Source of the DNA: Octopus vulgaris
Taxonomy: Eukaryota
Assembly (NCBI GenBank): GCA_951406725.2
Contig: OX597817.1
Coordinates: 6,448,001 to 6,512,000, forward strand
Length of the DNA stretch: 64,000 nt
Direction: 5' to 3'
This document shows positions 7,921 to 63,123 of this stretch, in pieces (the stretch's first letter is position 1; each line of letters starts with the position of its first letter). Under the pieces are notes generated by a model. That model searched no databases and was not told the DNA's origin. It saw only the letters and a program-made list of their open reading frames with translations. The position numbers were made by a program, and so were the translations under genes.

Positions 7921-8399
7921 GTTTGAGGTACAGTAATGTGATATATATATATATATAGACGTACATAGAGATATACGTATGCGCAAATAAAGACACATAC
8001 AAGAGAAATACAGAATGGCTGATGGTTAGTAAGGAGAGACGCACAAATAAGAAAGAAGAAAGCAAAGGACTACTGGAGTGGTCACAGGAGTGAGGAGAAA
8101 GAACTCTGACCGAAAGAAGATTAAGATTAATGTAAAAAATGAATAACGCTGAACCAAAGTAACACCAAATATATAGTGCGTGTGTTTTTATTGGCTAAAC
8201 TGGCAAAATGACCAACCATTCCTAAATACAACAATATCTGTTTCAACACACGATTTCACATCAAAAATCTTGCAAAACAAATATACAAACGTATATATAT
8301 AAGCACCGCTCACATATTTTGAAGAAGAAATTGATTGGGATGTCGCCCGAAGTCTCTGTCACACGAAGTTAGTGTTAATTTGCCATGTGGTTTCAAGGA

Positions 8400-18512: not shown

Positions 18513-18960
18513 ACTCTTTACTCTTTTACTCTTTTACTTGTTTCAGTCATTTGACTGCGGCCATGCTGGAGCACCGCCTTTTAGTCGAGCAAATCGACCC
18601 CGGGACTTATTCTTTGTAACTCCAGTACTTAGTCTATCGGGTCTCTTTTACCGAACCGCTAGGTGACGGGGACGCAAACACACCAGCATCGGTTGTCAAG
18701 CAATGCTAGGGGGACAAACACAGACACACAAACACATACACACACATATATGTATATATATATATATACATATATACGACAGGCTTCGTTTAGTTTCCGT
18801 CTACCAAATCCACTCACAAGGCTTTGGTCGGGCCGGGGCTATAGCAGAAGACACTTGCCCAAGATGTCACGCAGTGGCACTGAACCCGGAACCATGAGGT
18901 TGGTTAGCAAGCTACTTACCACACAGCCACTCCTGCGCCTTCAAGCCACTCCTGCGCCTA
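18513..18960 (-). mobile_element. tRNA/CORE-type SINE family C, full length
   Basis: Minus-strand head aggcgcaggagtggctgtgtggtaagtagc..gggttcagtgcc, CORE-like cttgggcaagtgtctt, internal TA/CA microsatellite, tail gaaacaagtaaaagagtaaaagag. Confidence 0.92.
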
Positions 18961-31229: not shown

Positions 31230-31279
31230 TTTGTCAAAATATTTTCGTCGCTAAAATCCGCGACCTGTTCACTGACAAA
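31230..31279 (-). ncRNA. Minimal type I hammerhead ribozyme motif, G3-C8 variant
   Basis: Minus strand: tttgtca GTGAACA g gtcgc ggatttta gcgac GAAA atat TT tgacaaa. 7-bp stem I, 5-bp stem II, palindromic tetraloop. Lies in a ~205-bp unit (31091-31296) between (TA)n runs. Confidence 0.75.
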
Positions 31280-31335: not shown

Positions 31336-31718
31336 GGGTATGTATGTGTGTGTGTTAGGGAGAGAGATGGGGAGAGGTATAATATATATATAGATTGCTA
31401 TAGTTACAAAATTCCTATGGATGTACGGATATATATAATACATTATATTACAAGCACACAAAAAAAGAACACACACACAAACGCGCACGCACGCAAACAA
31501 ACATACGTTGCAATATCCGAAGAATGTGAAAAAAGTGTTCAATACATATTCTAAGGGATATATTTCTTTACATTAAAAGTGAGAGCTTATACCTGTCACA
31601 AAATAATAGGTACGATGTGCCTGTGTCCCTAAATATTCTTCATTGATACATTGTACATTTAAAAAAAATATTTAGTGAACATTCTGTGAACTTTGAATTT
31701 AACATGTATTTTCGAATA

Positions 31719-32518
31719 TGTCTTGCCAGCATATTGTTCTGATGTCCACTGAATTTTTCTTTAGAGAACATTCTTTTCTTTGTAGTTTGATCGTAGGTTA
31801 TCTACTTCTAGCGTATGACTGACCACATAGTGGTTTTTAGCCCTTATAAATATACACATGAATTAGAATTTTCTCTGATTTTTCAGATTTTTGTATGCCA
31901 GGCTACTGGTTTTAAATTGATATTAATTAAATTAATATTCAAGTTATCTCCATCATTATTTGAATGTTAAAATAAATATGTTCTCTAATAGGCAGCACTA
32001 ACTGCAGTAAATTATTTACTGCAGATTTTGTTTCCGGAATTTAGTGCGCCAGAACTTCGACATTTGAAATTAACCTCAATGTAATCGGTGGAACTAAGCA
32101 CGTGTCTGTTTTTATACGGAAAATTGGTGGTTAGTTTTACAAATTATATTGCTTGTGGAACGATCGTACTGACGAGTCCTACGAACGATTACGATTACGT
32201 AAGTGATTTATTCGTTAATAGGCGAAACCGCCGGTCAACGATTAATTCTTGTTCTTTATATAATTTTCATCTGTCTTGCCCGCATATTGTTCTGGTGTCC
32301 GCTGAATCTTTCTCTAGAGAACATTCTTTTCTTTGTAGTTTGATCGTTGGTGATCTACTTCTTGCATATGACTGACCACATAGTGGTTTTTACCTCTTAT
32401 AAATATACACATGTATTAGAATTTTCTCTGATTTTTCAGATTTTTGTATGCTAGGCTACTGGTTTTAAATTGATATTAATTAAATTAATATTCAATTTAT
32501 CTCCCTCATTATTTAAAT

Positions 32519-32521
<3 letters not shown>
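31719..32521 (+). mobile_element. Partial tandem repeat (553-bp period, ~1.45 units), retrozyme or pseudo-LTR-like
   Basis: 250-bp direct repeats at 31719-31968 and 32272-32521 with a hammerhead in the spacer; ends at (TA)n. Confidence 0.8.
32163..32242 (+). ncRNA. Type I hammerhead ribozyme motif with canonical core
   Basis: atcgt-a CTGACGA g-t-ccta[long stem-loop]tagg-c GAAA cc gcc gg TC a-acgat. All core nucleotides are present with a GUC triplet; the first stem I pair is an A.A mismatch. Confidence 0.8.
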
Positions 32522-32564
<43 letters not shown>

Positions 32565-37767: not shown

Positions 37768-38167
37768 GGCGCAGACGTGGATGTGTGGTAAGAAGCTTGC
37801 TTCCCAACCGTATGATATGAGGTTCAATCTCACTGTGTGAAACCTTGGACAGGTGTCTTCTACTATAGACTCGGGCCGACCAAAGACTTGTGAGTGGATT
37901 TGCTAGACAGAAACTGAAAGTAGCCCGTGGATATACATATTTTTATATGTATGTGTGTCTGTGTTTGCCGCCCTCACCCCACTATCGTCTGACAACCGAT
38001 GTTGGTGTGTTACTGTCCCCGTAACTTAGCGGCTCGGCAAAAGACACCGATAAAGTAAGTACTAGGCTTACAAAGAATAAATCGTGGTGTCGATTTCTTC
38101 GATAAAAAAAAAAACCTTTAAGGCTTGCCCCAGCATGGCCACAGTCACATGACTGAAACATGTAAAG
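37768..38167 (+). mobile_element. SINE family C, diverged full length
   Basis: ggcgcagacgtggatgtgtggtaagaagcttgc...accttggacaggtgtcttctactatag...catgactgaaacatgtaaag. Confidence 0.9.
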
Positions 38168-48407: not shown

Positions 48408-48876
48408 CAGAGAGAGAGAGAGAGAGAGGACACTAAGAATAAGCATGCCAACCGTTTGTGTCATTTTTTCTCCGGATTACACCCCCTCTTTAACTTATCA
48501 ATTTTTTCTCCGAAATTATACGGATGGACAAATGCACAAAACAGAAACTGAAACAAATATGGACGAAACAGTTCCCAATGGGGAACAGTTCGCAAAAACA
48601 ACCCCCAATCGCCCCCACCCCAAATCATATATGCATGGAATCTACCTAGACCGGGGTATACTTGTATCCATTTTCCTGAAAGTTAAGACGAATTGAAGTG
48701 GATTCTAGTGAAATTTCCGAAAATTCTTCCCATCCCTCCTAAAACACTTTCGCCCAAAAACTTTGTATATTCGATGCCTACATGATATAACGCATATTCG
48801 TAGACAGTTTTATTTTAAAATATACATTTTTCTGAAAGTTATCATCATCCAAATTCGGCGGGGATGGGGGCAGAAA
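47679..48876. repeat. Diverged ~265-bp inverted repeat pair (possible DNA-transposon derivative)
   Basis: 47679-47952 is approximately the reverse-complement of 48617-48876; outer ends tttctgcccc / ggggcagaaa. Confidence 0.75.
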
Positions 48877-48879
48877 GCC

Positions 48880-49551
48880 TGTGGTGTGATGGTAACAACT
48901 GTCAATGATCTCATAATGCATGTGCTCCCAAACATCGCAGAAAACTTTAGCAACAGTCAATGGCTGCGTGAACGAGCCATCTTAGCTCCACGTAATGACG
49001 CTGTCGACAAAATCAACTGCTATCTCTTGCAGCTGTTGTCAACAAAAGAACAGTCTTTCAAATCCCTCAACACTGTCATTGAGAAGGACCAGGCAGTAGT
49101 TTTTCCATCTGAGTTCCTGAACTATCTGCAGCCACCTGGGATACTAACTCACCACTTAACACTTCAAAAGGGGACCCCAATCATGCTGCACGGGAATCCG
49201 AATCCACCTCCTCTGTGCAATAGCACCTGACTGGTGGTGAAAGCGATGCGACCCCATGTCCTAGAAGCAACAATTATGACAGGGAACTATAGGGCTGAGG
49301 ATGTCTCCATTCCACGAATCCTGTTAATCTCCTATGACTTTTCCTTTGAATTTAAATGGTTCCCGTCCCCAGTGAAATTAAGTTTCGCTATGTCAATAAA
49401 CTAGTTTCAAGGACAGTCTTAACCTAGCTTCTTTCATGGGCAATTATATGTTGGATGTTAGCGTGTTGTAAATCCCCCAAATCTTTTCCTCTATACACCA
49501 ATTAAAGGACACACTCAAAACGTCGTATATTTAGAAGCTCTAGATAATTAA
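48880..49551 (+). pseudogene. Helitron PIF1-like helicase C-terminus, pseudogenised
   Basis: WLRERAILAPRNDAVDKIN...FPSEFLNYLQPPG..HHLTLQKGTPIML..NP..LCNST*LVV...IPRI...PVKLSFAMSIN*FQGQS...HGQLYVGC*RV...TQNVVYLEAL, with stops and deletions. Confidence 0.95.
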
Positions 49552-54384: not shown

Positions 54385-54613
54385 TTTTACTCTTTTACTC
54401 TTTTACTTGTTTCAGTCATTTGACTGCGGCCATGCTGGAGCACCGCCTTTAATAGAGCAACTCGACCCCGGGACTTATTCTTTGTAAGCTCAGTACTTAT
54501 TCTATCGTTCTCTTTGGCCGAACCGCTAAGTGACGGGGACATAAACACACCAGCATTGGTTGTTAAGCAATGCTAGGGGGACAAACACAGACATACAAAC
54601 ATATACACACACA

Positions 54614-54655
<42 letters not shown>

Positions 54656-54822
54656 TACGACGGGCTTCTTTTCAGTTTCCGTCTACCAAATCCACTCACA
54701 AGGCTTTGGTCGGCCCAAGGCTATAGTAGAAGACACTTGCCCAAGGTGCCACGCAGTGGGACTGAACCCGGAACCATGTGGTTGGTAGACAAGCTACTTA
54801 CCACACAGCCACTTTTGCGCCT
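54385..54822 (-). mobile_element. SINE family C, full length
   Basis: Very similar to 18513-18960 over its whole length. Confidence 0.92.
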
Positions 54823-56419: not shown

Positions 56420-57145
56420 ATGCTTAGGCTCAGTACACACAACATTAGAATATTGTAGTACCGGTTAAACAACGGCAGCAAATATACATACATAAACCTA
56501 GCACTGAAAAATAAGAGAACAACATGAAGCGTTTCGGCAGCGAACTTCCTTGGAAGCACTTTCTTTCTGATACTAATAATCTCGCATACAATCCCAAAAA
56601 GATGAACTTCTAAGACTACGTGAAAGGGAAATACTTAACATAGAATAAATAAATAAATAAATTAGGAGTGGCTCTGTGGTAAGTAGCTTGCTTACCGACC
56701 ACATGGTTCCGTGTTCAGTCCCACTACGTGGCACCTTGGGCAAGTGTCTTCTACTATAGCCTCGGGCCGGCCAAAGCCTTGTGAGTAGATTTGGTAGACG
56801 GAAACTGAAAGAAGTCAGTCGTATATATGTATATATATGCATATATATGTATATGTTTGCGTGTCTATGTTTGTTCCCCAACATCGCTTGACAACCGATG
56901 CTGGTGTGTTTACGTCCCCGTAACTTAGTAGTTTCGGCAAAAGGGACCGATAGAACAAGTACTAGGCTTACAAAGAATAAGTTCTGGAGTCGATTTGCTC
57001 TACTAAAAAGCGGTGCTCCAGCATGGTCGCATCCAAATGACTGAAACAAGTAAAAGATTAAAGAGTAAAAAAAGAGTAAATAAATATATAGAATATTATG
57101 CATGAGTATGTTTCCAGACGGCTTGAAGATGAGAGTAATATCGAC
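56420..57145 (+). pseudogene. Penelope-like GIY-YIG endonuclease C-terminal remnant, interrupted by a SINE
   Basis: With the SINE removed the sequence reads LRLREREILNIEY / MSMFPDGL, like the PLE terminus RExxWIxxLxTxxPxGLN. HNIRIL*YR lies upstream. Confidence 0.5.
56664..57080 (+). mobile_element. SINE family C, full length
   Basis: aggagtggctctgtggtaagtagc...gcaccttgggcaagtg...gactgaaacaagtaaaag. Possible TSD atagaata at 56640-56647 and 57088-57095. Confidence 0.92.
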
Positions 57146-61031: not shown

Positions 61032-61361
61032 ACTCTTGCTCTTTACTCTTTTACTTCTTTCAGTCATTTGACTGCGGCCATGCTGGAGCACCGCCTTTAA
61101 TCGAGCAACTCGACCCCAGGACTTATTCTATCGTTCTCTTTGGCCGAACCGCTAAGTAACGGAGACATAAACACACCAGCATCGGTTGTCAAGCAATGCT
61201 AAGGGAACAAACACAGACACACGAACACACACGAACACACACACACATATATATATATATACATATAAACGACGGGCTTCTTTCAGTTTCCGTCTACCAA
61301 ATCCACTCACAAGGCTTTGGTCGGCCCGAGGCTATAATAGAAGACACTTGCCCAAGGTGCC
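61032..61361 (-). mobile_element. SINE family C, 5'-truncated
   Basis: Aligns with 54385-54750 and stops at cccaaggtgcc, so the tRNA head is missing. Confidence 0.9.
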
Positions 61362-62163
61362 TCATATATATATATGTGTGAGTGTGTGTGTGTGTGTGTA
61401 CATACATACGCATATGTGTGTGAGAGTGAGAGAGAAAGAGAGAGAGAGATCATGGGTGTACGTGCAATAGTTGGGCGGTTAAGACGCTTATTTTGTAACT
61501 ACATGAATCGATATTTAATCCACCGCGCAGCACCTCGGGTAAATATCTCCTACTGCAGACTCGAAGCGTACCAATGACTTGGATGTGAATTTACTAATCG
61601 AAAACTGTGTTAAAGCCCTTCGTCTACGGGTATATATGTGTGCGTGTGTATGTGTGTGCATATTTTCGTGTATATATGTGTATCTCTGTGTTTACGTTTG
61701 TTCCTCCATTCGCTTGTTTATGTTCCGTAACTTAGCTATTCAGCAAAATAAAAAAGACAACTATAAAATGATTTACAAGGTAGGCACTGGGATAAATTCT
61801 TTTATCTAAACACTTCAAGTTGGTGTGCTAGAATCGTTACAGGTCAAAGACTAAAGATACAAATAATGTTTTAAAATGTTAACACAAGGCTAGCAATTTT
61901 CTTCAGAGGATCAAGACGATTACATTGCCCCCGGTGCTCAACTAGTGCTTATTTCATCAACCTCTGAAGAATGAAAGTCGATACATGTGTGTGAGTGTGT
62001 GTGTGTAGATATATAGATACACGCACACACACATATATATATATAGTCAAAATAAGCAACAAGGATATCCAAAGGTAGTGTGGTACAATCGTTTCATGCT
62101 AAATCTAAATTTTTACTGAACTTATATACATATATATATATAAGTACATGCATACACACACAC

Positions 62164-62263
<100 letters not shown>

Positions 62264-62299
62264 ACTAGTAGACACATCACTGTTCTGTAATCGGTGCGC

Positions 62300-62347
62300 A
62301 TTCAAAGTAGTGATCAGTAATCTTACGAAACCGGTATGCTTTTGAAT
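62300..62347 (+). ncRNA. Minimal type I hammerhead ribozyme motif, G3-C8 variant
   Basis: attcaaagta GTGATCA gta atct tac GAAA ccgg TA tgcttttgaat. Stem I has one G.U pair and one bulge; palindromic tetraloop. Lies in a ~235-bp unit between (TA)n runs. Confidence 0.72.
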
Positions 62348-62512
62348 CTCTTTAACAATTCACAATGACTTTTATTACTTTTATTCTTACCTCAGTTTAT
62401 CGAATTGTATATATGCATCGTTACTTTTCATAAAAAGCCTTTACTTTTCTTGATTTTCAATGTGCATTTTCGGTTATTTTTCATCTTACTTGCCCCTATA
62501 TATATATATATA

Positions 62513-62660
62513 TGTATCTGTATATTCAAACATGCACAGAATATTGGTTGACACAGAGTGCTATAATCCATATAAATATACACCAAAGACTGTACATTTA
62601 TATGGATTATAGTACTCTGTGTCAACCAATATTCCGTGCATGTTTGAATATACAGATACA
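62513..62660. repeat. Near-perfect palindrome, 70-bp arms with 8-nt loop
   Basis: 62513-62582 pairs with 62591-62660 with three A/G differences. Confidence 0.95.
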
Positions 62661-63123
62661 GTACCAATATCAATTCCTTCTGGAAACTATCTTAAGTATG
62701 TCCTTGGGAGCGATTATTGATGTAATCTTTTTTGCCCAATATTTTAAGGAACTTGTTGAACTTTTTTATGTCCTTAACATGTCCCTGTTACCAAAGACTG
62801 TATATATATATGTACTCTAGCAATTTGCAACAACCAATAATTAACGCAACCAAACCTCCACATGTTACTTTTGACAATCTTTTTCCAAAGAGTGAAACCG
62901 GTAAAGTAAATAAACATCTTTTAAATTGCATTTTCAAAACTTCTTTCGTATATATATATATATATTTAAATTAATTTTATGTATTGGCTTATGTATTTCA
63001 TTGTTTGATTTGCCTAATAGGGATTTTATCTCTAATTTAATATAATATAATATATTTATACTATAAAATTGGATTTAATCCTAAATCTAATTTTTCCCTG
63101 TAAGTTTTGATTTATTCCCTAAT

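Follow-up and report, generated by a model that had tools for sequence, protein, structure and literature searches.

A short-stem-III hammerhead motif with a reversed core pair in a dispersed repeat family from the Octopus vulgaris genome

The C3-G8 pair of the hammerhead core is treated as near-invariant and is built into the search descriptors of PMC4209133 and PMC8557442, the latter requiring CUGANGA and listing motifs that all begin CUGA. In the parts of PMC4209133 consulted, natural U3-A8 is the only natural core covariation described, the same natural 3/8 covariation to U3-A8 is reported in PMC3088659 (Perreault et al. 2011) and, among 198 cricket sequences, C3 is changed in four and G8 in two (PMC2837043, in the portion covered). 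A reversed pair is known from engineered ribozymes. The C3G/G8C double mutation partly rescues cleavage of a Penelope-element hammerhead, for which protein is required (PMC11167929), and deep mutagenesis of a type III construct, in the sections covered, gives the G:C swap as the sole rescuing double change in this region (PMC9901934). According to the review PMC8495972, cited here in part, the 2'-OH of nucleotide 8 is essential. Hammerheads with a short palindromic stem III that cleave as dimers are a described metazoan form (PMC4209133). No report of natural G3-C8 or A3-U8 cores was found in the openly accessible literature searched, which also covered portions of PMC6765202, PMC3884650, PMC7229834, PMC6962438, PMC10085705, PMC2920678 and PMC12192606 but not the study of short-stem-III variants by Lunse et al. 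(2017).

The stretch analysed here (the window) comprises 64,000 nucleotides of Octopus vulgaris contig OX597817.1 and consists of microsatellite-rich animal DNA of 35% GC. At 62300-62347 on the forward strand, a reading of the sequence finds all elements of a type I hammerhead, with G3-C8 replacing C3-G8; the GUGAUCA core, the CCGG palindrome and the GUA triplet lie where the preliminary description of this DNA had placed them. The 5' strand of stem I (62300-62309) pairs with its 3' strand (62337-62347) over 10 bp, with one bulged U in the 3' strand and one U-G pair. There follow the core strand GUGAUCA, positions 3-9 (62310-62316; G3 is 62310, N7 is 62314 and C8 is 62315), a stem-loop II (62317-62326) that can be drawn with either 3 bp and a loop of 4 nt or 4 bp and a loop of 2 nt and is closed by G10.1-C11.1, the GAA of G12-A13-A14 (62327-62329) and a palindromic minimal stem III, ACCGGU, from A15.1 to U16.1 (62330-62335). 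By hammerhead numbering, the predicted cleavage bond lies 3' of A17, the last letter of the GUA triplet (62336-62337). The topology is that of type I, namely a three-way junction whose ends lie in stem I, with a stem III of 2 bp or, alternatively, of the 6-nt palindrome. U4, G5, A6, N7 and A9, G12, A13 and A14, the A15.1-U16.1 pair and the NUH triplet are all present, and the structural requirement for a Watson-Crick 3-8 pair is satisfied by G-C in the window copy. Stem I has just one bulged U and loop II is variable in the family; no contact between loops I and II is recognisable. The extra nucleotide between A9 and G10.1, present in a second motif at 31.2 kb and in one family variant described below, is absent from the 62.3-kb copy. 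Judged on structural criteria, the motif is a short-stem-III type I hammerhead, predicted to be active, that fails the consensus letters C3 and G8.

The closest described systems differ from this locus in distinct ways. Penelope-like elements carry minimal and short-stem-III hammerheads of type I (Cervera and de la Pena 2014, PMC4209133) that share with it their topology, palindromic minimal helix III and G10.1-C11.1, as well as AU-rich flanks, dispersed single copies and predicted activity as dimers. In all 56 metazoan representatives of Fig. S3 of that paper, however, position 3 is C or U, whereas here it is G or A, and the 62.3-kb copy further departs in its short helix II, its lack of the 9/10.1 nucleotide and the lack of a linked element reading frame. 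Two traits of Penelope-like pLTR hammerheads are thus found, a palindromic minimal stem III and a multi-copy family dispersed in (TA)n, and one that is usual but not universal, the extra A9/G10.1 nucleotide, is missing. The canonical type I hammerheads of metazoan non-LTR retrozymes, as described in the consulted parts of PMC7229834 and bioRxiv 10.64898/2026.07.22.740005, resemble the motif in helix I (6 bp and an extension), helix II (about 4 bp) and helix III (1-2 bp, with a loop that is palindromic); they too reside in short, low-GC, non-coding units, and solo monomers have been described. Unlike these, the present motif has a flipped core pair and occurs without a tandem array in the window, and none of the listed joints of its family is head-to-tail. 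Natural covariation of positions 3 and 8 is shared with the variants of Perreault et al. 2011, but U3-A8 keeps the order pyrimidine3-purine8 that is reversed here. The engineered C3G/G8C mutants (PMC11167929; PMC9901934; reviewed in PMC8495972, each in the portion covered) carry the identical G3-C8 pair, with cleavage partly restored; the swap described here is instead natural, amplified and alternates with A3-U8.

The motif is carried by a dispersed repeat family, of which the window contains one truncated copy (62262-62496, forward strand), bounded on its 5' side by a (TA)n array (62123-62261; period 2, 69.5 copies) that is the likely insertion target and ending in a short (TA)n run (62497-62513). 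The short unit between (TA)n arrays that had been noted from the sequence is confirmed, at about 235 nt. Other copies extend beyond both ends, as is shown by loose ends upstream of 62278 and downstream of 62482. No second copy was found within the window. A run search listed 24 runs under seven organism labels, 23 of which hold some family words; RNA runs are absent among the 24, which says nothing on expression. Contigs of four runs (X1, X5, X11 and X17, from organisms A, B, D and E) were aligned on 62262-62495 at 80% likeness, giving 714, 450, 813 and 300 family contigs, respectively, mostly less than 95% alike and covering all 30 bins. The repeat is therefore a dispersed multi-copy family, present in all four runs with 300-813 contigs each, and the absence that the preliminary description had named as fatal to its reading is not observed. 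Summed depth set against single long contigs suggests hundreds to thousands of copies, although depth itself is no copy number. At seven places, among the listed rows, the window copy departs from the majority letter in every one of the four runs and is therefore old; being old and alone, it is probably no longer functional in place. Outside animals, the family gave no matches in genome contigs (0 and 0) or in viral contigs (0), and the one match among metagenome contigs (L001) has neither core nor stems and was dismissed as chance.

Several features of the unit and its surroundings were recorded alongside. A depth step at 62326 was considered as a trace of truncation at the cut site and rejected, as like steps occur at private changes of this copy (62398-62413) and ends do not accumulate in the listed data. 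In the X5 consensus, the start of the window copy (62262) follows a pyrimidine run ending in AG, resembling a 3' splice site; the X17 sequence differs and the likeness is weak. Directly 3' of the unit, a near-perfect fold-back of about 150 nt (62512-62661), probably a miniature inverted-repeat element, has an Rfam microRNA match below threshold.

The nature of the parent element was approached through its architecture. No Pfam match to a reverse transcriptase or GIY-YIG domain occurs in the 267 reading frames of the window, so that any link to Penelope is by architecture only. Naiad and Hydra were considered as carriers, but short words of the family could not be matched convincingly to the consensus files of the PMC8557442 supplement (Naiad, Chlamys and Hydra), in which line breaks can hide matches. 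The same supplement, in the part covered, lists (TA)n as a target of several Penelope clades, and by analogy the palindromic stem III together with the (TA)n target is likely to indicate a Penelope-type or retrozyme-type element. In that supplement, the 3' ends of octopus Naiad consensus sequences (the records preceding Naiad_Ovul and Naiad_Omin) carry GAAAC shortly before CUGAUGA, which is a permuted hammerhead order; in the part covered, the authors list for one of them no more than a half core.

Variation within the family was read from a table in which 40 rows are listed and 27 others, together with 255 loose ends, are not. Position 3 is A in 27, 90, 54 and 84% of the depth of X1, X5, X11 and X17, respectively, and position 8 is U in 41, 86, 58 and 80%, with A3 and U8 each the majority in three of the four runs. 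The two shares follow one another closely across runs (r = 0.999, n = 4 runs; mean difference 0.065), the next-closest site to position 3 among 13 other motif rows compared having a mean difference of 0.27. Both are marginal shares from runs that are related to one another, possibly reflecting a single event on a tree. Neither position is part of a CpG. Direct phase is provided by one weak consensus, an X5 loose end (three contigs, agreement 0.71) in which AUGAAUA stands right behind the family stem I strand, thereby placing A3 and U8 together; this is the variant noted above for its extra 9/10.1 nucleotide. A GUGAACA core in an X17 loose end was discarded, as the stems around it do not close. 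The 5' half of the core is covered by only about 3-12% of peak depth, so that most copies are untyped at positions 3 and 8. When the listed rows are set against the totals of each run, C>G places are absent from X5, X11 and X17 and every G>C place there is explained, and C3-G8 therefore accounts for less than 4% of typed depth in these runs; in X1, one C>G and one G>C place are unlisted and could represent a C3-G8 minority. The family core is accordingly purine3-pyrimidine8, either G-C or A-U, and not just G3-C8. The earlier label of a G3-C8 variant holds for the window copy but is too narrow for the family, in which A3 and U8 are each the majority in three of the four runs.

No variants at U4, G5, A6, A9 or 62323-62339, an interval that includes the GAA and the stem III palindrome, are among the 40 rows listed, and in X5 unlisted A changes are entirely absent. 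N7 (62314), by comparison, varies freely, to A or C, as do loop II positions 62321-62322, and G10.1 is changed to A in 5-10%, breaking its pair. In stem I, C replaces U62308 in 89-99% of family depth, turning U-G into C-G and improving the stem, the listed changes of the 3' strand at 62340 and 62342 are compatible with the bulge, and G62344>A (11-17%) breaks a distal pair. The covariation that had been expected in stem I is consequently not seen, the listed changes being the one-sided U-G to C-G replacement and those compatible with the bulge; covariation occurs in the core instead. The short stem II of 3-4 bp, noted as a weakness of the fold, proves to be a trait of the family, in which listed variation falls in the loop.

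A resemblance arising by chance within AT-rich repeat DNA would account for several unremarkable properties of the motif. Monomer stability is ordinary against shuffles (z = 0.03 and 0.98) and the minimum-energy fold of the monomer differs from the hammerhead, poor monomer folding being expected, however, of short-stem-III forms. Of 204 Rfam matches in the window, the best 150 include none to a hammerhead at 62.3 or 31.2 kb, and a focused search at 62.3 kb with E up to 10 finds none either. The strict descriptor, which leaves positions 3 and 8 free, was composed after the motif had been seen. Applied to the window, it finds two sites, 62310 (+) and 31272 (-), both G3-C8, whereas 2,943 local dinucleotide shuffles yield six matches with any 3/8 pair, of which one is G-C; the preliminary description had taken a frequency equal to shuffled controls as evidence against the motif, and that in the window is far higher. 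A relaxed descriptor finds four window sites, namely both G3-C8 motifs, one with C3-G8 at 32169 and a weak one with A3/A8, where 40 shuffles of the window average 0.95. In viral sequences, 0 of 48 matches to the G3-C8 core letters plus palindrome and 0 of 67 to their C3-G8 counterparts, hence none of 115, close both stems I and II. The variation of the family, moreover, obeys hammerhead rules. Shuffles, family variation and viral core matches have thus already largely refuted the chance reading, which is regarded as most improbable.

The reading preferred here, and considered probable on balance, is that the motif is a copy of a type I hammerhead fold in a many-copy animal repeat, with a 3-8 pair of G-C or A-U and not C-G, and that the fold likely provides slow self-cutting as a dimer for what is likely a Penelope- or retrozyme-type mobile element. 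Two transcripts, or two copies, would pair through ACCGGU (computed self-duplex energy -8.3 kcal/mol) to supply stem III, and the Watson-Crick 3-8 pair would fix the ribose of nucleotide 8, leaving its base free to change. In standard hammerhead chemistry, catalysis is by G12 and the 2'-OH of nucleotide 8, and the products carry 2',3'-cyclic phosphate and 5'-OH ends; here, cleavage between 62336 and 62337 is predicted to follow the same course and leave the same ends. Such cleavage would trim the RNA of the element, possibly with help from the element's protein. The flipped-core motif is thus likely to be a working but overlooked natural variant, in which cutting is predicted.

A rather unlikely alternative is that the fold is real and selected while cutting is absent or irrelevant, the motif serving as a structural or protein-binding signal in which a flipped pair was tolerated as catalysis relaxed. 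Any Watson-Crick pair is reportedly tolerated at positions 3 and 8, depending on context (work attributed to Przybilski and Hammann, 2007). In the deep mutagenesis of PMC9901934, in the sections covered, only the G:C swap rescued; A3-U8 therefore did not, which counts against A3-U8 as an active pair and speaks for a structural role. Minimal Penelope hammerheads also cut poorly and their authors leave other functions possible (PMC4209133, in part), and the lizard element, for which hammerhead mutants are without effect on insertion in vitro, inserts without cleavage, with no reads ending at the cut site in the portions of PMC11167929 covered. The weak stem II and the instability of the monomer are compatible with this alternative as well. 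Nevertheless, positions 3 and 8 form a tertiary contact within the active core, and complementarity kept there while N7 drifts is as expected under selection on catalysis; G12, A13, A14, the NUH triplet and G10.1-C11.1 are, moreover, kept in the listed rows. Distinctly less likely again is that a canonical hammerhead has decayed and that two common transitions merely mark one amplified subfamily, the pairing itself being unselected. G>A and C>T do rank among the commonest changes of the family, the four runs are related and lack independence, sorting by organism is seen at other sites as well (r = 0.93 for 62322>A), and in both X1 and X11 the share of U8 exceeds that of A3, which leaves room for G3-U8 copies. 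Such an accident, however, needs two double changes (C-G to G-C to A-U) on exactly one known tertiary pair. None of the other listed motif sites follows position 3 so closely, and an unrelated element in the same window shares the swap.

That element contains the second G3-C8 motif, at 31230-31279 on the reverse strand, with core GUGAACA and palindrome AAUAUU, and its sequence is unrelated to that of the 62.3-kb motif. The independence of the two, asserted beforehand, holds at the sequence level, the two units being without alignment and 498 of 500 shuffles scoring equally well. The 31.2-kb motif also has a longer stem II, which, like its extra 9/10.1 nucleotide, is typical of Penelope minimal hammerheads, and its unit has a weak partial relative at 8240-8273. 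A canonical C3-G8 hammerhead at 32163-32242 on the forward strand (RF00163, 27.5 bits, under the gathering score of 34) carries an A-A mismatch adjoining the core and therefore appears decayed. It immediately precedes the second of two direct repeats (31705-31975 and 32262-32525; about 90% identical, about 555 bp apart), forming a partial-tandem, pLTR-like unit. An 11-mer shared by the 62.3-kb and 32.1-kb units was considered as a sign of homology and rejected, as 145 of 500 shuffles score equally and 35 of 100 shuffles yield two matches at one mismatch. The three hammerhead units of the window show no mutual alignment, and the tally stands at two G3-C8 motifs to one C3-G8 motif.

A baseline for the canonical pair is provided by viral contigs, in which cores with a GUCC/GGAC stem II, one stem II type, were collected with positions 3 and 8 free; 11 of 64 parts were scanned, with about 770 stretches estimated. 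In these sampled parts, 136 phage cores in 131 loci were recovered, 131 of which pass the full-fold test, and all 136 are C3-G8. Across the whole collection, purine3-pyrimidine8 cores with this stem II number six (three G3-C8, two G3-U8, one A3-C8 and no A3-U8), roughly chance level, and none has a convincing full fold in the type I/III test; U3-A8 gives two matches. The phage stretches with a G3-C8 core and GUCC/GGAC stem II are L379, L380 and L383, in which the other stems are unclosed in that test.

What is new here is a natural animal family of high copy number in which G-C and A-U alternate as the core pair. A family of this kind would constitute evolutionary evidence for selection on pairing, as opposed to base identity or orientation, and would mean, if true, that animal hammerhead counts are too low. 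Natural G3-C8 and A3-U8 variants also bear on whether Penelope-type hammerheads are selected to cut at all. It may be proposed, tentatively, that several unrelated mobile-element families in this lineage have fixed the reversed purine3-pyrimidine8 core, with G-C and A-U both active, so that thousands of copies, perhaps outnumbering canonical ones there, would have been missed by CUGANGA searches and by Rfam; some 'hammerhead-less' Penelope-type elements may carry such cores. Elsewhere in the window, a reading frame at 48712-49227 (+) has a match to the Pif1 helicase 2B domain just under the cut-off (E 5e-5) and is probably a Helitron remnant, and a SINE-like repeat with an internal microsatellite is present in five copies (61040-61360, 54394-54749, 18525-18866, 56731-57064 and 37842-38166).
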